This document shows, in pieces, positions 11,860-60,633 of a stretch of DNA of 64,000 bases. How positions within the stretch are numbered: position 1 is the stretch's first letter; every line of letters begins with the position of its first letter. The position numbers and the translations under genes were made by a program. Source of the stretch: a virus (lineage: Duplodnaviria; Caudoviricetes); IMG/VR virus record IMGVR_UViG_3300033066_001396, positions 60,567-124,566 of that record; one strand, 5' to 3'. A model generated the notes under the pieces. It did no database searches, was not told the origin of the DNA, and saw nothing but the letters and a program-made list of their open reading frames with translations.

Positions 11860-12329
11860 CATTATTAACACCAGAAAAAGCCAAGTTGCTTCTTGGTGAT
11901 CCAAACAAGGCAGAGGCAAAAAATTGCGCTCTGTGGGCAGCACCAACAAACAAGCGCATAGACAATATCCCCGTTAAAATATATATGAATAAGGCAATGA
12001 TTCCATATTGGAATACTGCTTATCTGGAAATATATGATAAGGGCGTTGGATCTTTGATAAAAACTTGGGATGGGTGTTTTAATATGAGACTTATTTACGG
12101 AACCAGACAATGGAGCTTGCATGCGTGGGGATTAGCGTTTGATATAAACGCACAAACCAATAAACAAGGAACAAAAGGAGATATGCCTAAAATAATTGTC
12201 GAAATTTTCAAAGAAAATGGTTTTGATTATGGCGGAGATTTTAAAGGAGCCAGAATTGATCCTATGCACTGGCAGTTAAAAGAAGAATTTTTAACATATT
12301 ACATAAATAAAACCCGAACATCAAAATGA
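11856..12329 (+). CDS. M15-family zinc peptidase (endolysin-like)
   Basis: GCFNMR, WSLHAWGLAFDIN (SxHxxGxAxD) and DPMHWQL motifs. Confidence 0.88.
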   Translation: MTLLTPEKAKLLLGDPNKAEAKNCALWAAPTNKRIDNIPVKIYMNKAMIPYWNTAYLEIYDKGVGSLIKTWDGCFNMRLIYGTRQWSLHAWGLAFDINAQTNKQGTKGDMPKIIVEIFKENGFDYGGDFKGARIDPMHWQLKEEFLTYYINKTRTSK

Positions 12330-13114
12330 TGATAAGACAAAGCAAGAATGTTTTTGGTTTTAATAAAGATGGAACTTTTTTTGGGGGGTGGCCTTCTATA
12401 AAAGAATGCGCAAGGAGCCTTAAAAGAGAGCCATCTACTGTGCGAGAGGCGATTAACAAAAGAAATTTTTGTAACGGATTGGTGCTTCAGTTTATACCAG
12501 AGTTCATGCCTATTGAAAAGCGAATAAGGTGCAGATCTGGTGTTCCTCCCAAAAAAAACGCCAAGGTTGTTCCAGACGAAAATACAGTTGTAGTGCCAGA
12601 TACAAATGGATATTATTATGTCACCAGAGATGGCAGGATAATTAATATGTATGGTAGAGAATTACAGCAAAAAACTACTCTTTGGTGTGAATACTTAACC
12701 GTGAATCTTCAAATAAATAAAAGAAAAACGCACAGGAGTGTTCATAGAATAGTCGCACAGGCCTTTTTGTCAAATCCAGAAAACAAATCACAAGTCAATC
12801 ATGACGATGGAAATAAAAAAAATAATAATATAAGCAACTTGGGGTGGATGACACCAAAAGAAAACATGAAACATGCTATTGATAAGGGTTTGTATAAACG
12901 ATACAATAATCAAACATACAAGGGTAAATTTGGCAAGGATCACAATAGGTCATTGGCCGTTATCTGTAAAAACACAGGTAATGTGTACGGAAGCATTTCT
13001 GAGGCGTCAAGAGAATTAAAAATTAGTATTTCAACAATTCATTATTCGATATCTAAAAAAGTTCCATTAAAAAATGGACTGGAGTTTTCTTATCACCAAA
13101 AGTTGATCAAATGA
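12326..13114 (+). CDS. HNH homing endonuclease with NUMOD-type DNA-binding repeats
   Basis: VHRIVAQAF, VNHDDGNKKNNNISNLGW; NUMOD1-like WPSIKECAR and YGSISEASREL segments. Confidence 0.88.
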   Translation: MMIRQSKNVFGFNKDGTFFGGWPSIKECARSLKREPSTVREAINKRNFCNGLVLQFIPEFMPIEKRIRCRSGVPPKKNAKVVPDENTVVVPDTNGYYYVTRDGRIINMYGRELQQKTTLWCEYLTVNLQINKRKTHRSVHRIVAQAFLSNPENKSQVNHDDGNKKNNNISNLGWMTPKENMKHAIDKGLYKRYNNQTYKGKFGKDHNRSLAVICKNTGNVYGSISEASRELKISISTIHYSISKKVPLKNGLEFSYHQKLIK

Positions 13115-13473
13115 CAGCAGCATATATTCAAGAGCGTATAAACTACTTATCCTCATACTTCCAAGAGGACTACCAGGAAGACAATATTGAAATATTGAAC
13201 GAGCGGTTCAAGAAGACATTGGTGTTCGGAGCCGAATTGCCGGCACTTTTAAAGACCGCTAGCACGTTAAGGGATCAAAGACTATCTGAATTAGTTGGGG
13301 GAGGGCATAAGATGTCTGAAGCTAAGTTGCTGGCGTATACCGAGGTGAATTTAGTTGAAGAACTTAAGTCATTACGATCAACAATCAACCAGGCCCACCG
13401 AACCCTACAGTCTCAGATATCAGTATGGAAAGAGGACTATAACAGGCATAGATTTGCTGAAAAAGGAGCATAA
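13111..13473 (+). CDS. Hypothetical coiled-coil protein
   Basis: ATGA-coupled ORF. Confidence 0.65.
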   Translation: MTAAYIQERINYLSSYFQEDYQEDNIEILNERFKKTLVFGAELPALLKTASTLRDQRLSELVGGGHKMSEAKLLAYTEVNLVEELKSLRSTINQAHRTLQSQISVWKEDYNRHRFAEKGA

Positions 13474-13502
13474 TTAGTGTTAGACAACGTAAATTATTAA
13501 TT

Positions 13503-13844
13503 ATGAGTAAAAAGTTAAAAAACAAAGAAGAAAAGGCGTTAATCCACCCACAAATGCTGATAAAAGCAATGGATGAATATGCACAAATGGTATTAAAAAA
13601 CTTGCATAAACCCCCTGTTGTGTTAGCCGAAATTAAACCTTCTGCGTGGGTCGATGTTGAAAAAAGGTTGCCTGACACATATTGTAGTGTGCTGGTATAT
13701 GACCCGAACAATCCATTTAATAGTTCAATGGACGTGGTAAGATATGATGCTTACCAAAAATGCTTTTTCTTTAGTGGTGGAGATACAATACACCCTACTC
13801 ATTGGCAACCTTTACCCGAAAAGCCGTGCGTGGATAAGATTTAA
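13503..13844 (+). CDS. DUF551-like protein
   Basis: WVDVEKRLP ... PTHWQPLPE motifs. Confidence 0.8.
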   Translation: MSKKLKNKEEKALIHPQMLIKAMDEYAQMVLKNLHKPPVVLAEIKPSAWVDVEKRLPDTYCSVLVYDPNNPFNSSMDVVRYDAYQKCFFFSGGDTIHPTHWQPLPEKPCVDKI

Positions 13845-14033
13845 GTAGTTAATAATCCGCAATCAAAAACTTCTGTAATCCTCGCTCCGTTACTGGCGTT
13901 GAAGTTGTGCATTCAGACCGCCATATTATAAAGCACATGTTATATGAAGGTGGGATTTTCACGCACTACCTCCGATTATAGCACTAAAGAAAAAAGAAAA
14001 ATGTGCGTGGGAAACAAATTAATTTAATCAAAA

Positions 14034-14579
14034 ATGGGAACAAGAAATTTAACAATGGTTATCAACCAAGAAGGAGAAAAGAAAGTAGCACAATACGGAC
14101 AATGGGATGGTTATCCCTCTGGCGTTGGCGTAGGTGTTATTAAATTCCTTAAAAACAAAGAGGTTTTTGAAAAGTTTAAAGCCAACTTATCTAAAGTAAG
14201 ATTTTTAGATGAAGAAGGCGTTGACAAGGAATTTGTTGAAAGCTACAATAAAAACGCACCACAATGGAGTAATGCGCCTGATAACAGAACCGAAGAACAA
14301 AAGCGATGGTTTTCTACTTATTGCACTCGTGATTTAGCAGAAGAAGTTTTAACCAATATTGCAAACTCTACTGATGAAGAAATTGTTTTAATAGATAGAG
14401 AAAACACCGCAAAAGGTGATGGGTGGGTAGAATATTCTTATGTGATAAACTTAAAAGAAAACACCATTGGAATTTACGGACACATAGACAAAGAACCAAT
14501 GAAAGTTTACAAACTTGATGAACTACCCGAAGAAGATGTTTTTGTTTCAGAGATAGAAGGTGTTGAAGAAGAAGATTAA
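14034..14579 (+). CDS. Conserved phage hypothetical protein (cassette gene)
   Basis: MGTR..YGQWDGYPSG ... EYSYVINL pattern. Confidence 0.8.
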   Translation: MGTRNLTMVINQEGEKKVAQYGQWDGYPSGVGVGVIKFLKNKEVFEKFKANLSKVRFLDEEGVDKEFVESYNKNAPQWSNAPDNRTEEQKRWFSTYCTRDLAEEVLTNIANSTDEEIVLIDRENTAKGDGWVEYSYVINLKENTIGIYGHIDKEPMKVYKLDELPEEDVFVSEIEGVEEED

Positions 14580-14595
14580 AAAGAAGCGTGGGCAA

Positions 14596-14826
14596 ATGAT
14601 TAGATTTCTAAATTTAAAAGACCAAATCTGCGAAGGACAAAACGACTTTGCATTTTATGATACAGTAAGCGATACTATTTGCTCATTCGGAGAACAGGGA
14701 GAACAAATATTTAGTAGTGTTGCAGAATTTCAATACGCTTACGGAAAAGAACAAGAAGGAACAACAAGACCATTAAGCAGATTTGTGTCTTTAATTCCAG
14801 AAAATTATTTTGAAAACGAGAAGTAG
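14596..14826 (+). CDS. Hypothetical protein (cassette gene)
   Basis: ATG 14596 (MIRFLNL..FAFYDTV); ends just before an attC-like site. Confidence 0.65.
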   Translation: MIRFLNLKDQICEGQNDFAFYDTVSDTICSFGEQGEQIFSSVAEFQYAYGKEQEGTTRPLSRFVSLIPENYFENEK

Positions 14827-14833
14827 TGCTTGC

Positions 14834-14964
14834 CTATAACGTATGGTGCTTGCCGAAGGGCGGATTTAGAATTACAAATGTTCAATTACTTACTTATGTC
14901 AAATAGAAATACTAATGTTCAGGGCTTGCACGTCAGCCCGCCTTTTGGCAAACACGTGTTAGGC
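14834..14964 (+). repeat. attC-like site A
   Basis: CTATAAC (14834-40) ... TTGCCGAAGGGCGG / CCGCCTTTTGGCAA inverted repeat ... GTTAGGC (14958-64). Confidence 0.7.
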
Positions 14965-16731
14965 GAAGATGCTTTTACGGTACTTTCCTTATTCGATGGA
15001 ATGTCGTGTGGCCAAATGGCTTTAAAACGTGCAGGGTTTAATATTACCAAGTATTATGCTTGTGAAATTGATAAATATGCTATACAAGTAACTCAAAAAA
15101 ACTTTCCTAATACGATTCAATTAGGAGATGTTACAAAAGTTTCGGCAAAGGATTTATCAAAAGTAAATTTGCTTATTGGTGGTAGCCCGTGCCAGGGATT
15201 TAGTTTTGCTGGTAAGCAATTAAATTTTGAAGACCCAAGAAGCAAACTGTTTTTTGAGTATGTGAGATTGCTAAATGAAATTAGAGAAATAAATCCTAAT
15301 GTACTTTTCTTACTTGAAAACGTGGTAATGAAAAAAGAGTATCAAGATATAATTTCGGAACATTTAGGCGTACAACCTATTTTGATTAATAGTTCACTTG
15401 TATCGGCTCAAAATCGCAAACGATTATACTGGACTAATATTGGTAAAATTTCACAACCAAAAGACAAAGGTATTACTTGGGGTGATGTAAGAGAACACAA
15501 TATAGAATGGGGTGCAATGTATTATACCGATAAAGCAATGGATTGGATAGGGAAACACGGAACAAGAAAAGGAAAGCCTTTGAAAATTCACGCTGATAAT
15601 GAAAAAATGCAAATGCTTGAAGCAAGTCACCACAAAAAATATAGTTCACAAAGGTTTTTTGGAATAATAGACCAACCTGCCCAAATAACTGGGCGTAGGC
15701 TTAATGAATTTGGCAAAAGAGAAGATTATAACAAAAATATCAAAACTACTCAATGTTTAGAAGTAAGAGGTGGCGATAAAGTAAATTGCCTTACAACTGT
15801 TCAAAAGGATAATGTAATTAGTGTATTACCAATAGGAAGATACCCTGATGTGTTTAAAGAATTGGAAGAGGGTAAGCATTATAGATACATTACTCCAATT
15901 GAATGTGAAAGATTGCAAACTGTACCTGATAATGAAATTATTTGTATATTTGCATTATGTTTAGACCGAGCAAAGAATTATGTAAATGCGGTAGAGCAAA
16001 ATCCCAAGTTGCTAAAACTTGCTTTGAGTGCCGAAAAAACAGAGTTGAACGAGTTTGTAAAACTTGTAATTCAAAATACATTACAAAGCAATCAACAAAC
16101 AAAGTATATTGCTCAAGTAAATGTAGATATGCAGATACAAATGCAAACAAATCAATGCACAGCAAACAATCAGAAAGACAGCAATATAATTGCAAACAAT
16201 GCGGCAAATATTGCGATGTGCAAAAATCAAAATATAGGGGCGGATTTTGTTCATCCAAATGTTTTTATAAATATAACAGAGGGGAGAATAACCCACTTTG
16301 GAATGGAGGAATTACACCAGAAAGGCAAACATTCTACAAATCAATTGAATGGAAACAAGCCGTTGCTCTTGTCTGGGAACGAGATAATGGAACTTGTCAA
16401 AGATGTAAATGCCGGAATAACAAGGGAAAAAGATATGAATTTCACATTCACCACATTATCAGTTTTAAACACAAACAGTTTAGAACTGATGTTAGCAACC
16501 TACTACTTGTTTGCAAAAAGTGCCATAATTGGATTCACTCAAAACACAACAAGTCAAAAGAGTATATCGGTTCAATTCAAAATAAATGATGGATACACAA
16601 GCATTGTAAGTAATTCTCAAAGGTACAGAATGCTTGGTAATGGTTGGACTGTTGATGTCATAAGTCATATTTTTAACCATATCAAAAAAGAAGTTTCAAG
16701 TTACGAGGGTGCTTCTTGCATTTTCGCCTAA
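14896..16731 (+). CDS. C5-cytosine DNA methyltransferase carrying a 220-codon in-frame insertion
   Basis: Motif I LSLFDGMSCG, IV GGSPCQG, VI LENV, VIII QNRKRLYW, IX ECERLQTVPD, X RYRMLGNGW. The start codon is uncertain (14830/14878/14896). Confidence 0.88.
   Translation: MSNRNTNVQGLHVSPPFGKHVLGEDAFTVLSLFDGMSCGQMALKRAGFNITKYYACEIDKYAIQVTQKNFPNTIQLGDVTKVSAKDLSKVNLLIGGSPCQGFSFAGKQLNFEDPRSKLFFEYVRLLNEIREINPNVLFLLENVVMKKEYQDIISEHLGVQPILINSSLVSAQNRKRLYWTNIGKISQPKDKGITWGDVREHNIEWGAMYYTDKAMDWIGKHGTRKGKPLKIHADNEKMQMLEASHHKKYSSQRFFGIIDQPAQITGRRLNEFGKREDYNKNIKTTQCLEVRGGDKVNCLTTVQKDNVISVLPIGRYPDVFKELEEGKHYRYITPIECERLQTVPDNEIICIFALCLDRAKNYVNAVEQNPKLLKLALSAEKTELNEFVKLVIQNTLQSNQQTKYIAQVNVDMQIQMQTNQCTANNQKDSNIIANNAANIAMCKNQNIGADFVHPNVFINITEGRITHFGMEELHQKGKHSTNQLNGNKPLLLSGNEIMELVKDVNAGITREKDMNFTFTTLSVLNTNSLELMLATYYLFAKSAIIGFTQNTTSQKSISVQFKINDGYTSIVSNSQRYRMLGNGWTVDVISHIFNHIKKEVSSYEGASCIFA
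15945..15952 (+). promoter_or_regulatory. TAnnTTTG promoter for the nested HNH gene (probably leaderless)
   Basis: TATATTTG lies 4 nt before ATG 15957, inside the insertion. Confidence 0.6.
15957..16589 (+). CDS. Zinc-finger HNH endonuclease nested out of frame in the methyltransferase
   Basis: Multiple CxxC / YCSxKC repeats, NPLWNGG, WERDNGTCQRC, HIHHI..NLLLVCKKCHNWIH. Confidence 0.9.
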   Translation: MFRPSKELCKCGRAKSQVAKTCFECRKNRVERVCKTCNSKYITKQSTNKVYCSSKCRYADTNANKSMHSKQSERQQYNCKQCGKYCDVQKSKYRGGFCSSKCFYKYNRGENNPLWNGGITPERQTFYKSIEWKQAVALVWERDNGTCQRCKCRNNKGKRYEFHIHHIISFKHKQFRTDVSNLLLVCKKCHNWIHSKHNKSKEYIGSIQNK

Positions 16732-16853
16732 CGGTAGGGCTTTGCGATGTGTGGGCATCGAAGCACAAAAGCTGAATAACCCACAAAAGCATCATAGAAG
16801 TACGATGCTGAATATTAGTACTTCTGCCACATATAGCAAAACCCCTGTTATAT
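16726..16853 (+). repeat. attC-like site B
   Basis: GCCTAAC ... GGGCTTTGCGATGTGTGG / CCACATATAGCAAAACCC ... GTTATAT. Confidence 0.72.
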
Positions 16854-16885
16854 GCTGTGCTTTCTTAGGGGTGTAAAATTTAGAT

Positions 16886-17224
16886 ATGGCAAAAACAGTC
16901 AAGTTACAAGAACTAAACAGACAATATGAATTTGTCTGTAATGAATGGGTAAGAAAATTTTGCAATAAACAGCAAATTGATTTTGATGGTTGGGTAGGTG
17001 ATGAAGTTGGTGGCATTGCTTCGTTTGCTTGTCAATATTTTTTCAATTTGTCTGATATTATTTTAGACTTAAACACAAAGCAACCAAAAGGTAATATTTT
17101 AGATTGGCAAAGTGAAGATGTTGATTTTAATATGTTCAATGAAAAACAACAACATATTAATTACAAATCTTACACAATGGGTTTAAGGCACGAACAATTA
17201 AAAAATGTAAGCAATGAAAAGTAG
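16886..17224 (+). CDS. Hypothetical protein (cassette gene)
   Basis: ORF immediately after attC-like site B. Confidence 0.75.
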   Translation: MAKTVKLQELNRQYEFVCNEWVRKFCNKQQIDFDGWVGDEVGGIASFACQYFFNLSDIILDLNTKQPKGNILDWQSEDVDFNMFNEKQQHINYKSYTMGLRHEQLKNVSNEK

Positions 17225-17537
17225 TTTAAGATTACCGATAAGGATAAAAGCAAAACACAAATTAATGAAATGGGATGTTGTATTAAACCCTGTATTCTTT
17301 ATGTATCATAATGCTTTTGAGGTAAAGGTAATTAAAGGCAGTTTGTCAAGTAGCATTTTTTGCTGTAAAATATCTGAATTTGAATATAACTGGTATGCTA
17401 AATGTCAAATATGGTTTATATGGAAAATATACTGGTGTCGTAATGTTTTTTGGCGATATGTAAGGTATCAACTTCCTTATAAAATTAGGATGTATTTTAA
17501 AACGAAACAAGCTATGTCCGATGACTTGCCATTTTAG
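17214..17537 (+). CDS. Hypothetical protein (cassette gene), ends in DDLPF
   Basis: Overlapping start; ends just before site C. Confidence 0.6.
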   Translation: MKSSLRLPIRIKAKHKLMKWDVVLNPVFFMYHNAFEVKVIKGSLSSSIFCCKISEFEYNWYAKCQIWFIWKIYWCRNVFWRYVRYQLPYKIRMYFKTKQAMSDDLPF

Positions 17538-17555
17538 AGTGCTGCACAGCATAGC

Positions 17556-17703
17556 ATATAACGGTAGGGATTTACGCTCGTTATTTTTAGCGGGATTAGA
17601 AGCAAAAACTTTAATAAACAACTAAATATAAATAAAATGAAACAGACATCAAAAAAAGCGAAAATGCCCGCTAAAAATAATGGCGTTAAATCTATTGTTA
17701 GCA
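17556..17703 (+). repeat. attC-like site C
   Basis: ATATAAC ... TTATTTTTAGCGGG / CCCGCTAAAAATAA ... GTTAGCA. Confidence 0.72.
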
Positions 17704-17924
17704 GCAGTAGCGTGTTCATAAATGACCGTTACTCTCATTTGAAATTCAAAACAATGGCAACACCAACTCAACTAACTATTGGAATGATGGTGCAGATTTG
17801 TGAAAGCAACAAACAACCATTAAGTTGGGAATGGAATGAGATAACAGTTGAGTTGCTAAATAAATTGTTGGTGATGCCATCCGATAAATACAAATGGATA
17901 CGGATACCGAGCTATTGCTGCTAA
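17637..17924 (+). CDS. Hypothetical protein (cassette gene starting inside site C)
   Basis: Its stop codon is the TAA of the terminal GCTAAC. Confidence 0.55.
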   Translation: MKQTSKKAKMPAKNNGVKSIVSSSSVFINDRYSHLKFKTMATPTQLTIGMMVQICESNKQPLSWEWNEITVELLNKLLVMPSDKYKWIRIPSYCC

Positions 17925-17942
17925 CATCTGTATTGACGCAAT

Positions 17943-18140
17943 ATGAACATACAACTACTTAGCAATAAACCAATTATATTCCGAGTAGGAAATAGACAGT
18001 TCGAATATGTAAAGCCATATTACTTAATGGAAGGATTTAGAATGATAAAAGCAGTGGTGAAAGGATCAACTCTATGTTGGAACATTGAAGGGAAAACAAT
18101 AAGTTATAATCAAATAAAAAAAACGACTAATGGCATCTGA
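17943..18140 (+). CDS. Hypothetical protein
   Basis: ORF in array. Confidence 0.6.
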   Translation: MNIQLLSNKPIIFRVGNRQFEYVKPYYLMEGFRMIKAVVKGSTLCWNIEGKTISYNQIKKTTNGI

Positions 18141-18399
18141 CGGATTGTTAAAGAGAGCAAAAAATGGTACTTGCAGAATTTGTCAACGTACACGAAGTAC
18201 AGAGAACCAGGTAAAGGCCGTTGGCGAGGTTAGGCATGGATATGCAACTGGTCATATTTGGGAGTGCATAAACACCGAAGACTGCGACAAGGCCGCAAGG
18301 GAAAGACTTGTTTCAGGCAAGGTGAGTGGTCGTGTACGTGGTAAAATAGAAAACGGATTACAGCGTGGTCGATTCACAGAATATATGATTGCAGTTTAA
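18130..18399 (+). CDS. Small Cys-containing hypothetical protein
   Basis: CRIC ... ECxxxxxC pattern. Confidence 0.6.
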   Translation: MASDGLLKRAKNGTCRICQRTRSTENQVKAVGEVRHGYATGHIWECINTEDCDKAARERLVSGKVSGRVRGKIENGLQRGRFTEYMIAV

Positions 18400-18417
18400 A
18401 TAAAATAGTTAAAGGTT

Positions 18418-18861
18418 ATGATGATACAAATATCTGAAACACACTGGATCAATCCAGATAAGATCTCCTACATAAAGCTTGACCTGATTAAAACCCCCGA
18501 CCCGGCGGTTACCCAGGCAAAATATGTTGCGGTAATGATAAACGGCAAAGACCTGATCATTGAAAAGCCAGAGGCTATAAGAATACTGCTTAAGAGCCCA
18601 GAGCAGGAGGATCAGAACGAAAGAATATTAAAGATTTCTGCACAGAAATACCAGGTACTAAAATCCTTTAAAGCGGCCAACAATGATCTCATGATAGAAG
18701 CCGGAACGGTATTGCACCGCAAGGAATTTGATGGAAAAATTCGGTGGATAGCCGAAGAAAATAGCATGATCGAATTTGACTGGCAGAACATTAATAATCC
18801 GGAATTTTTTGCACCGGCATCACCACTACGAGTATTGCCAACCCCAAATACTGATAAGTGA
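18418..18861 (+). CDS. Hypothetical protein
   Basis: N-terminal WINPDKISYI motif. Confidence 0.65.
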   Translation: MMIQISETHWINPDKISYIKLDLIKTPDPAVTQAKYVAVMINGKDLIIEKPEAIRILLKSPEQEDQNERILKISAQKYQVLKSFKAANNDLMIEAGTVLHRKEFDGKIRWIAEENSMIEFDWQNINNPEFFAPASPLRVLPTPNTDK

Positions 18862-54126: not shown

Positions 54127-54560
54127 TAGTCCATTGTTTCAAACCAGTTAAGATCATTGGCCTTTCTACTCTCCTTAAGCCAGGCCCAGATGCTTAATTT
54201 CCCATAGTTACTATTTCCAATGGCAGTGATGAAAGCATATACTCCTTGATTGGGAAACTGAGTATTCTCACGATGACCCTTTCGCCACACGTATTTGTAC
54301 CAGCCCTTCTCTCTGTTGATGGGAGCTACACGCAATGTACCTAACCTGAACATAAGATGAAACAGCCAGTCCACGCGGATCAAGAACTTATATACGCTCA
54401 TGAAGTAGAAGTAAAAGGCGGTACGATACTTGTAGTACGACACAGGAGTACGACCATGGTAGTTCTCTACCCCAACATATATTTCATAGAACTGCTCCAT
54501 TGTCAAGATAGAGCCCTTCTTAAAGCAATTTCGATAATAGTATTCTAGGAATATCTTCAT
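54126..54560 (-). CDS. Small basic protein, possibly IHF/HU-like as found between crAss ring genes
   Basis: FHLMFRLGTLRV..WYKYVW motif and gene position. Confidence 0.45.
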   Translation of the reverse strand: MKIFLEYYYRNCFKKGSILTMEQFYEIYVGVENYHGRTPVSYYKYRTAFYFYFMSVYKFLIRVDWLFHLMFRLGTLRVAPINREKGWYKYVWRKGHRENTQFPNQGVYAFITAIGNSNYGKLSIWAWLKESRKANDLNWFETMD

Positions 54561-55252
54561 TTCAAACTTAGGCCGGGAATATCTTTTATTCCATTATTAA
54601 ACACATCAGTATCCTTCGGTCTTGGAGCAACGAGACTTTTGTATGTCTCATCGAACATTACTTTCTCCAAATCCGAATCCATAATAAATTCCACGTCAAA
54701 AGCATTCAGGCAATGATTGACCTTGCCATTGCAGTCCGGCATCAATGCATACTCTATTGGGTCGTAGGGAATAAGGGTTTCTGTCAGAGTCCTCTTATGT
54801 ATATCATTAAGCACATAATGATGGTGCCTGTCTCCAATATTTTTAAATGTATAATAGGGTGAGTTAGCGATGTCAGCATATCTATGATTAAGCTGATCTT
54901 CGAAGTTCTCCCATGGCAGATAATCGTATTTTATCTCTCCCTGGGATGTGCCGACATAGGATATGTGGATATGCCTTATTACCGGGATCTCTGTCTTTCG
55001 GAAATAACATCCTTGAGAGGGTATGCAGGGGCACTCATTCCTGTCTGCTTTTATTAGTTTAAGACACGGTATTACTTTGAAGTTTTCGTATCCAACCTCT
55101 ATGCCAGCGCGGAGCTTCTGGCTAATGTAACTAGCTCGCACCTTGAGCATGTGCCCATATAGGTACTGTGCCGACCAATTAGTCTGGGCACTGGTATGTC
55201 CTGTGTAATCAAGCCACCCGCGAAATCCTTTGACGGTTTCTCCTATGGTCAC
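54557..55252 (-). CDS. Tail ring/adaptor protein, crAss-like
   Basis: FKVIPCLKLIKADRNECPC..FRKT..P; ends DVFNN; GTG start. Confidence 0.65.
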   Translation of the reverse strand: MTIGETVKGFRGWLDYTGHTSAQTNWSAQYLYGHMLKVRASYISQKLRAGIEVGYENFKVIPCLKLIKADRNECPCIPSQGCYFRKTEIPVIRHIHISYVGTSQGEIKYDYLPWENFEDQLNHRYADIANSPYYTFKNIGDRHHHYVLNDIHKRTLTETLIPYDPIEYALMPDCNGKVNHCLNAFDVEFIMDSDLEKVMFDETYKSLVAPRPKDTDVFNNGIKDIPGLSLK

Positions 55253-55255
55253 GCA

Positions 55256-56134
55256 TCATAACTTGGCGATTTTGTCTTTCATCTTCTGCAATTCGTTTAC
55301 GACATATGCCATAAACTTTTCCTCGGTAAACGTGAGCTTAGCGAGTCCATCACCAATCGTATATGTTTTTTGTTCGTTGACCTTAGCAAGTAACGCTTCG
55401 TTTTGAAGGGCAAGAAGATTTATAGTATGTAGATAATCGCCGGCACGTACAGTGTCAACGAAATTGGTTACCTGCGCAAGCTTGGCATTGCTCATATTGA
55501 TAATGTCCTGTAGAGTGTATCTACTGTTGGCAGTACTGTTAACGCCACGGACACTAAGAGGGAAGAATCGCTTATCGGCGAAAGGAATGTTGCCAAGCGA
55601 TAGATTGGCATATAAGATCATATCGCTGCAATCGACAGAAGATATGTTTATACTTACGCTGAGGCTTATAGGAAAATTGGAAGCCTCCAAAACCACTGCA
55701 TTAGACGCCTTCTCTGTTTTTAACAGGTTTTTCTTGACTCCATTCTCCATTACAGAGATAGAGGCATTGACCATCTTAACATGAATACTTGAAGGTAGGG
55801 TATTTATTGCCTCTGTAAAATCATAGGAAAAGGTAAATACTCCCGCAGCCGCAGACAATAGATACCATCCTTTCTCATCGCTGACCTTGTCCCAGCAACC
55901 ATTGAAGTCGGTAACCAGGAAGGCGGGGGGATTGTCTATAGCTACATCAATAGCCGTGACCTGTTGTGGGTCCGACGCCCCCTGAGCTGGCATCGTCTGA
56001 AGTAAGATAGGAATCAGTTTTTTATAGGGCATACCGTAATATATCCCTAGTTCCGGATACGGATTACCAGTATAATATACGGAGTCGTCCGGTGTCTCCA
56101 TATAGTCTTTGTTGCACTCCGCGCATTTTGCCAT
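55256..56134 (-). CDS. Structural hypothetical protein
   Basis: N-terminal CAEC..DSVYYTG..PELGI..G motif; C-terminal coiled coil. Confidence 0.6.
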   Translation of the reverse strand: MAKCAECNKDYMETPDDSVYYTGNPYPELGIYYGMPYKKLIPILLQTMPAQGASDPQQVTAIDVAIDNPPAFLVTDFNGCWDKVSDEKGWYLLSAAAGVFTFSYDFTEAINTLPSSIHVKMVNASISVMENGVKKNLLKTEKASNAVVLEASNFPISLSVSINISSVDCSDMILYANLSLGNIPFADKRFFPLSVRGVNSTANSRYTLQDIINMSNAKLAQVTNFVDTVRAGDYLHTINLLALQNEALLAKVNEQKTYTIGDGLAKLTFTEEKFMAYVVNELQKMKDKIAKL

Positions 56135-60535: not shown

Positions 60536-60633
60536 TAATCACTAATGCTGACAAATGATATACGCATGTACTCTTTGTCTGCACTCACATCTGCAAGTGT
60601 TCCGGTGATCGATATCTTGTAGGCTTCTACCAT
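60535..60633 (-). CDS. Small ORF (32 aa) coupled to the 1452-aa gene
   Basis: ATG 60633 MVEAYKISITG..., TAG overlaps the GTG start of the next gene; downstream of TATATTTG (60653-60660). Confidence 0.35.
   Translation of the reverse strand: MVEAYKISITGTLADVSADKEYMRISFVSISD

Follow-up and report, generated by a model that had tools for sequence, protein, structure and literature searches.

A probable integron-like cassette array in a wastewater phage, built on hairpin sites of a family found in Bacteroidota chromosomes

The region analysed here lies in a stretch of 64,000 nucleotides (nt) of DNA from a wastewater phage (Caudoviricetes). This stretch is the final 64 kb of a linear, approximately 80% complete 124.6-kb IMG/VR record (IMGVR_UViG_3300033066_001396, positions 60,567 to 124,566), and it is called the window below; coordinates are those of the window unless the genome is named. 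An earlier reading made from the letters alone (the sequence-only reading) had described a block of accessory genes separated by attC-like hairpins, and had taken it for a phage-borne, integron-like cassette array without an integrase. The results presented below indicate, with a probability of about 0.75, that positions 14826-17985 form an integron-like cassette array with three well-supported cassettes, and that this array belongs to a family specific to Bacteroidota (Table 1). The array works like an integron, but it is not an integron in the strict sense.

The three hairpins are present exactly where the sequence-only reading had placed them (14834-14964, 16726-16853, and 17556-17703), each starting with TAAC and ending with GTT, and by folding each consists of a long imperfect stem and a large loop. 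In a scan of the genome for hairpins anchored by TAAC and GTTA, they rank first, second, and fourth. The genes of the region are all on the + strand, and the block is more AT-rich than its neighbours, as had been stated: the GC fraction is 0.32-0.36 over 14001-18000 and 0.38-0.40 in the flanks.

Each of the three gene blocks opens with GTT and a 12-nt arm and closes with the complementary arm and AAC, with 14 of 15 positions matching in each pair. This cross-cassette complementarity had been recognised before, and the middle pair extends over 15 nt rather than 9. The string at 17911-17925 had been listed as a partial site; a site is indeed present there, but it is not partial, being the complete right arm of cassette 4. 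A second array of the same genome, made up of two hairpins and two cassettes, is present at genome positions 54246-55800, approximately 4.8-6.3 kb upstream of the window. In all five cassettes of the genome, the sole arm mismatch is at position 11 counted from GTT: the GTT-side arm has G there and the AAC-side arm has T, so that the + strand forms a G.T wobble where the - strand has an A.C mismatch. This pattern is common to 12 further cassettes in viral contigs (L012-L014 and L018), which were reached through homologues of a 112-amino-acid (aa) protein of cassette 3. Over the whole 124.6-kb genome, there are eight GTT/AAC pairs with at most one mismatch, five of which are the cassettes. When two mismatches are allowed, 19 unique pairs are found, compared with approximately 7 in shuffled sequences. 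Chance as the origin of the arm pairs was rejected on these counts.

A composite of a cassette's own arms and its hairpin folds better by 8-12 kcal/mol than the arrangement found in the array, and the + strand folds better than the - strand in every case tested. A folding bottom strand had been proposed as a check; one strand is indeed the better folder, but in the phage it is the + (gene) strand. The hairpin loops (for example, 14865-14930 and 16765-16825) contain three to four motifs of the type GCAC...AAA.TT, spaced approximately 20-21 nt apart and located at columns 40-115 of the site alignment, and these could be protein-binding or promoter elements. A search of 13000-18600 against Rfam gave no match.

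The sites are not confined to phages. One genome per prokaryote species was scanned with a degenerate pattern derived from the 3' arm of the phage hairpins, and at least 120 loci were found, nearly all in Bacteroidota, where approximately 10 chance matches would be expected by a rough estimate. The loci listed include Flavobacteriales, Chitinophagales, Cytophagales, Sphingobacteriales, and Saprospiraceae, and in 95 of the 120 listed there is at least one cassette with G.T at position 11. Arm statistics were derived from GTT/AAC 15-mers with no more than one mismatch in 120 listed bacterial loci, the position of the mismatch not being preset. Of these 15-mers, 160 have G.T at position 11 as their only mismatch and 11 match perfectly, and every other class has 8 members or fewer. 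Positions 4-10 and 12-15 of the bacterial arms vary freely, yet they always pair; beyond position 15 there is no pairing, T.T being found at position 16 in 111 of 153 cases. The bacterial sites are mostly 132 nt or approximately 195 nt long and have phased repeats in the loop.

The stems of the bacterial sites show strong covariation. In an alignment of 44 bacterial stem sequences, 91% of the cells pair, compared with 38-52% when the partners are slid, and 172 stem cells show compensatory changes; none of 500 shuffles reaches the observed values. Two further fixed G.T pairs were found, one directly inside AAC/GTT (43 of 44 sequences) and one in the inner stem (37 of 44). One extended locus is in the chromosome of a Bacteroidota metagenome-assembled genome (MAG) (G007:C1:3478275-3974168; L044, L146), which has 97 same-strand motif matches, nearly all over approximately 500 kb and most of them nearly identical. 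It looks like a very large chromosomal array, and a gene for a 368-aa tyrosine recombinase lies approximately 12 kb beyond the last motif match. When viral contigs were searched with an 18-nt hairpin-arm motif, the matches were chance ones only, including a tail-fibre repeat.

A covariance model (R1) was built from the 44 bacterial hairpins only. When applied to the window, R1 recovers hairpins 1 and 2 at full length on the + strand and hairpin 3 weakly; elsewhere in the window there is one further match (10.9 bits, E approximately 1) and nothing else of note. Outside the window, R1 detects the second array as well as 13 sites of related viral contigs, in every case on the gene strand. The partial sites previously assigned to the left of the array (13479, 13601-13628, and 13939) did not hold up: the strings are present, but they score at most 5.6 bits with the family model and are at best eroded relics.

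In four of the five bacterial genomes examined, a tyrosine recombinase gene (PF00589) is located at the AAC end of the array and points in the same direction as the cassette open reading frames (ORFs). These recombinases score best on the integron-integrase and XerA models and remain below both cut-offs: 178-222 bits on TIGR02249 (cut-off 265) and 192-211 bits on the XerA model (cut-off 220). The one that was aligned (L145) gives an unbroken alignment to Pyrococcus abyssi XerA (4a8e, E 2e-35). Its alignment to IntI4 is split in two, a stretch of 56 residues in IntI4 being represented by only 17, and therefore the IntI-specific insert is missing from it. Two of the array recombinases have approximately 300 extra N-terminal residues. 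The sequence-only reading had postulated a host-encoded or distant IntI-like recombinase; a tyrosine recombinase is indeed found at the ends of Bacteroidota arrays, but, in the case aligned, it does not have the insert that characterises IntI. Among viral contigs, one (L163) has an array followed on the same strand by a 394-aa ORF that matches the array recombinase. In 11 of the 14 viral contigs with recombinase relatives, there is no array within the DNA examined, and these relatives may therefore be ordinary phage integrases. IS200/IS605-type elements were considered and rejected, no Y1 transposase (PF01797) being present in the genome and the arrays being linked to tyrosine recombinases instead.

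In one bacterial array (G009, L144:2645-4174:+), the recombinase gene is separated from the first site by a 509-aa reverse-transcriptase ORF (RVT_1), possibly a group II intron; some group II introns target attC sites.

The orientation of the genes relative to the sites differs between bacteria and phages. In the listed bacterial loci, the cassette ORFs are opposite to the G.T strand (161 versus 12); it is thus the bottom strand that folds well, just as in integrons. In the viral loci, the longest ORF is on the G.T strand in 18 of 20 cassettes. Several viral cassette ORFs have their start within the hairpin loop and extend across the 3' arm, GTT, and the following arm. In the present genome such starts are seen in the C5 methyltransferase ORF, for which the in-frame ATG at 14878 inside the loop of hairpin 1 is the likely start, in ORF 17637-17924, which starts inside the loop of hairpin 3, and in the methyltransferase ORF of the second array. 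Stop codons of cassette ORFs are often within TAAC, that of ORF 17637-17924 among them. Each hairpin belongs to the gene on its right, not to the one on its left. Because the exchange points described below are on the AAC side of the + strand, which corresponds to G/TT on the - strand (the slash marks the cut), the phage genes are antisense to classical cassettes by site polarity.

Replacement of cassettes was observed in a sequencing run (X20) from a different study than the likely source sample of the phage. This run contains the same phage at a depth of approximately 60, with 0-3 differences over 13000-16733 and 17922-18500, and the depth is no more than 4 over 16864-17783. In the X20 contigs, AAC plus G is followed by a different arm of a family-type hairpin, and TAAC is entered from a different right arm. 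On the left, the divergence sets in no more than one base from AAC (16732/16733), and on the right it stops within TAAC (17922-17925). From the contig ends and the depth it follows that hairpin 2, cassette 3, hairpin 3, and cassette 4 have been replaced together, with an AAC core at either limit of the exchanged block. In bacterial arrays, the recombinase is found at the corresponding end. The replacement fits units that consist of a hairpin and the gene to its right and are cut at AA/C (G/TT on the other strand).

A second case is provided by two viral contigs (L013 and L014), which are 99.6% identical over 4.5 kb and diverge just after the AAC at the array end. The claim that phages shuffle accessory genes as cassettes is supported, the content differing between near-identical phages in both cases with breakpoints at the cores. 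The more specific claim of an exchange at G/TT stands as far as the breakpoints lie at site cores, but on the + strand they are on the AAC side. In the comparison of related phages that had been suggested to look for such breakpoints, the left breakpoint is at AAC in X20 and in L013/L014, and one distal boundary is approximately 20 nt off. There, L013 and L014 (5296-5325 and 5297-5326, respectively) are not the same in the ~20 nt leading up to the first AAC of the array, a segment comprising a stop-codon region and an arm-like 15-mer; a simple AA/C cut does not predict this difference.

Cassette 3 also recurs in other contexts. In another viral contig (L012), an identical arm pair encloses an 82% identical homologue, with other hairpins and other neighbours, and in three other metagenomes the cassette 3 stretch is approximately 5-30 times as deep as its flanks. 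The 112-aa protein is a member of a PHROG of unknown function and has 179 metagenome homologues; the second ORF of the cassette encodes 107 aa. A 2-kb contig from a Bacteroidetes MAG bin (L034) also encodes a homologue of the 112-aa protein (91% identity), oriented as in phages; the contig is probably a phage fragment in the wrong bin.

Several results weigh against the interpretation as a functional cassette array. Hairpin 3 fits the family model only weakly (13.1 bits, E 0.3). The absence of an integrase, noted before for the array, extends to the whole record: tyrosine recombinases, serine recombinases, and Y1 transposases were all looked for in the 124.6 kb (approximately 80% of the genome), and none was found. 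Nor was a tyrosine recombinase found in the complete genome of Polaribacter phage P12002L or in a 90%-complete relative. The enzyme would therefore have to come from the host or from another element. In a study of phage-borne attC clusters (PMC9892861), P12002L_attC1, the one hairpin of the family type that was put to an experimental test, was the only site that gave no verified IntI1 recombinant. The X20 evidence comes from contig ends, with no contig spanning the replaced block, and one distal boundary of L013/L014 diverges approximately 20 nt before AAC. Finally, identical arm pairs bracket unrelated bodies (L013 versus L014, and the X20 joints), which also fits homologous recombination inside or beside the arms. 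Homogenised sites, by analogy with sedentary integrons, could explain such arms as well.

Part of this evidence would be expected if the hairpins were conserved intergenic repeats and the gene blocks were swapped by homologous recombination between co-infecting phages, with no site-specific enzyme acting on phage DNA. A recombinase is absent from the phage record and three relatives, identical arms enclose different bodies, one boundary is displaced from AAC, and the start codons are in the loops, so that the sites double as expression signals. Such an explanation is nevertheless unlikely. Neighbouring hairpins of one array share too little sequence for efficient exchange, the perfect covariation of the arms and the fixed G.T are left unexplained, the same sites form recombinase-ended arrays in bacteria, and the X20 breakpoints are at the cores. 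The lack of a recombinase, together with the eroded look of the left part and the degenerate hairpin 3, would likewise agree with an inert fragment of a host chromosomal array that was acquired once and recombines no more. This is improbable in view of the opposite strand of the ORFs in phage and bacterial cassettes, by which the phage cassettes are a separate pool and not a copied piece of the host; moreover, the cassette content differs among near-identical phages, and the genome has two arrays with the same end sequence.

It may also be asked whether the structures act in RNA only, as terminators, RNase processing stems, or translational control elements of each cistron, the cassette appearance being a by-product. 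The G.T strand of the phage is the mRNA sense, G.U pairs are typical of RNA helices, and start codons lie inside the loops. In the bacterial arrays, however, the well-folding strand is antisense to the ORFs. In addition, ORFs run through the hairpins, no T-run was seen after the hairpins, Rfam has no match, and neither the linkage to a recombinase nor the breakpoints at the cores are explained. A role in RNA alone is accordingly very improbable, and the integron-like cassette array remains the preferred interpretation.

The array shares many properties with integrons, including the Vibrio superintegron. Both consist of mostly single-gene units between imperfect palindromes with AAC and GTT cores, and in both the ends of one unit pair only in the circular form and one strand is the better folder. 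The attC-type features (an imperfect palindrome, AAC and GTT cores, and an inner L-type pairing) are evident from the sequence, the folds, and the covariation of the family. In the bacterial arrays of the family, as in integrons, a tyrosine recombinase is located at one end, and turnover is seen at the corresponding end of the phage array. The very long array with near-identical sites over ~500 kb of one Bacteroidota chromosome resembles sedentary chromosomal integrons.

There are also differences from integrons. The array recombinases are below the integron-integrase cut-off, and the one aligned does not have the IntI-specific insert. The closing stem of the family is exactly 15 base pairs (bp) long with a fixed G.T, in contrast to the 7-bp R box of integrons. 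The sequence-only reading had recognised the integron signature RYYYAAC/GTTRRRY; only the AAC/GTT cores and R at position 4 are conserved in the family. The strand is marked by three fixed G.T pairs in place of the extrahelical bases of attC, and family sites are mostly 132 or ~195 nt long with phased loop repeats. Further differences are the recombinase, which points the same way as the cassettes, and the phage cassette genes, which are on the folding strand. As to the Xer recombinases (XerA, XerC/D), the unbroken alignment to P. abyssi XerA is a similarity. In contrast to them, the array recombinases are under the XerA cut-off, are located at the ends of cassette arrays rather than serving chromosome dimer resolution, and in two cases carry the N-terminal extension. 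In T4-type phages, promoter/stem-loop 'mobile regulatory cassettes' are found between accessory genes and are attributed to homologous recombination; the alternative of conserved intergenic repeats considered above would resemble these. They resemble the present array in having accessory genes in plastic regions and repeated stem-loops with expression signals, but they have no unit-specific covarying arms, AAC/GTT cores, or link to a recombinase.

A close published parallel is that of Qi et al. (2023; PMC9892861), who described integrase-less attC clusters (CALINs) with methyltransferase cargo in virulent phages, including Polaribacter phage P12002L. As in the present case, these are clusters of attC-like sites in a phage with a DNA methyltransferase among the cargo. 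The paper treats the sites as ordinary attC sites recognised by IntI1; in the text examined, no mention was found of arms of 15 bp, G.T marks, a reversed gene strand, or a connection with recombinase-ended Bacteroidota arrays. In the P12002L genome, GTT/AAC arm pairs with G.T at position 11 are present on the gene strand, one of them without any other mismatch; R1 gives no match to this genome at E ≤ 1, and its sites are approximately 55 nt long. Phage-borne integrase-less attC clusters having thus been published, the idea itself is not new, and the earlier claim of an undescribed system can be kept only in part: literature searches returned no description of the hairpin-site family. In Bacteroidetes, IntegronFinder 2.0 (PMC9024848) reported a single complete integron, and a 2024 preprint (10.1101/2024.07.02.601686) counts Bacteroidota among the clades in which no integrons had been found before.

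From these observations a mechanism may be proposed. On the + strand, the mobile unit would run from the hairpin site through GTT and an arm of 12 nt into the gene body, and from there through the complementary arm to a final AA. Once the cassette is circular, both arms would pair and continue the hairpin into a single long imperfect stem, marked by the fixed G.T pairs at arm position 11, directly inside AAC/GTT, and at an inner-stem position. Because the complementary strand would carry A.C mismatches and fold worse, it is probably the G.T strand that serves as substrate, as the bottom strand does in attC. A tyrosine recombinase of the IntI/Xer group would cut at AA/C (G/TT on the other strand); the units would be inserted at the attI-like end (17926 onward) and excised by site-by-site recombination. 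For the phage array, the enzyme would be supplied during infection by the host or a co-resident element. The cargo consists of accessory genes, namely methyltransferases and small ORFs.

The features of the region are listed in Table 1.

Table 1. Features of the cassette region, in window coordinates
Feature	Position	Strand	Evidence or remarks
Possible eroded older cassettes, membership uncertain	13479-14825	+	AT-rich; weak arm-like or hairpin-like strings; family model ≤ 5.6 bits
DUF551 gene in the possible eroded stretch	13503-13844	+	Pfam match
ORFs in the possible eroded stretch	14034-14579 and 14597-14826	+	
Orphan 15-mer resembling a right arm, AAC at its end; distal limit of the well-supported array	14826-14840	+	Read from the sequence
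Hairpin site 1, AAC...GTT	14838-14960	+	R1 14834-14964, 72.7 bits, E 3e-15; folds
Cassette body with C5 cytosine DNA methyltransferase ORF 14878-16731	14958-16732	+	Arms 14958-14972 / 16718-16732; PF00145, E 1.6e-37
699-nt insert within the methyltransferase gene, HNH endonuclease ORF 15942-16589 in another frame	15931-16629	+	PF01844 match
Hairpin site 2, AAC...GTT	16730-16849	+	R1 16726-16853, 63.8 bits, E 3.6e-13
Cassette 3 body, ORFs 16886-17224 (112 aa) and 17214-17537 (107 aa)	16847-17562	+	Arms 16847-16861 / 17548-17562
Hairpin site 3, divergent, AT-rich	17560-17699	+	R1 17556-17703, 13.1 bits, E 0.3; strongest fold of the three, z = -3.0
Cassette 4 body, ORF 17637-17924 (95 aa)	17697-17925	+	Arms 17697-17711 / 17911-17925
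attI-like array end, no hairpin after it	17926-17985	+	Overlaps the start of ORF 17943-18140

The array end is approximately 88% identical (by eye) over ~57 nt to the end of the second array (genome 55744-55800), and it has no match among the viral contigs searched. At the distal end, no upstream partner of the orphan 15-mer with two or fewer mismatches was found, and the possible eroded stretch is the same in the variant phage of run X20. The 699-nt insert is located between motifs IX and X of the C5 methyltransferase, and the methyltransferase frame remains open. Runs X4, X19, and X20 contain insert-free methyltransferase alleles with 39 other letters in its place; the insert is therefore polymorphic, and it is separate from the cassette system. 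A free-standing HNH endonuclease gene is present at 12326-13114, just to the left of the region, and the phage has several HNH genes. Of the flanking 445-aa and 262-aa proteins, for which no useful relatives were found, the latter is an HNH endonuclease. No near relative was found in the phage collection, and no host assignment was obtained via hairpin or protein similarity.

The second array carries a small ORF and an N6/N4 methyltransferase gene. Plausibly, this methyltransferase and the C5 methyltransferase of the window have an anti-restriction role.

In the integron literature Bacteroidota count as nearly free of integrons, yet one short site motif is found at the at least 120 loci described above, nearly all in this phylum. 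It appears, at somewhat better than even odds, that Bacteroidota and virulent phages have a phylum-wide cassette system parallel to integrons and missed by integron tools, with an Xer-like recombinase without the IntI insert and with sites closed by a 15-bp stem and strand-marked by fixed G.T. The phages would have their own 'inverted' pool of cassettes, with genes starting in the site loop, and would borrow the host enzyme in infection to exchange anti-defence genes, methyltransferase genes among them. With its exact 15-bp stem and fixed G.T marks, the site is defined concretely enough to be tested biochemically and to serve as the basis of a search tool. If phages of these bacteria do use the same sites, cassette capture would allow virulent phages to acquire and lose accessory genes, those for anti-restriction included, and the accessory gene pools of host and phage would be linked.

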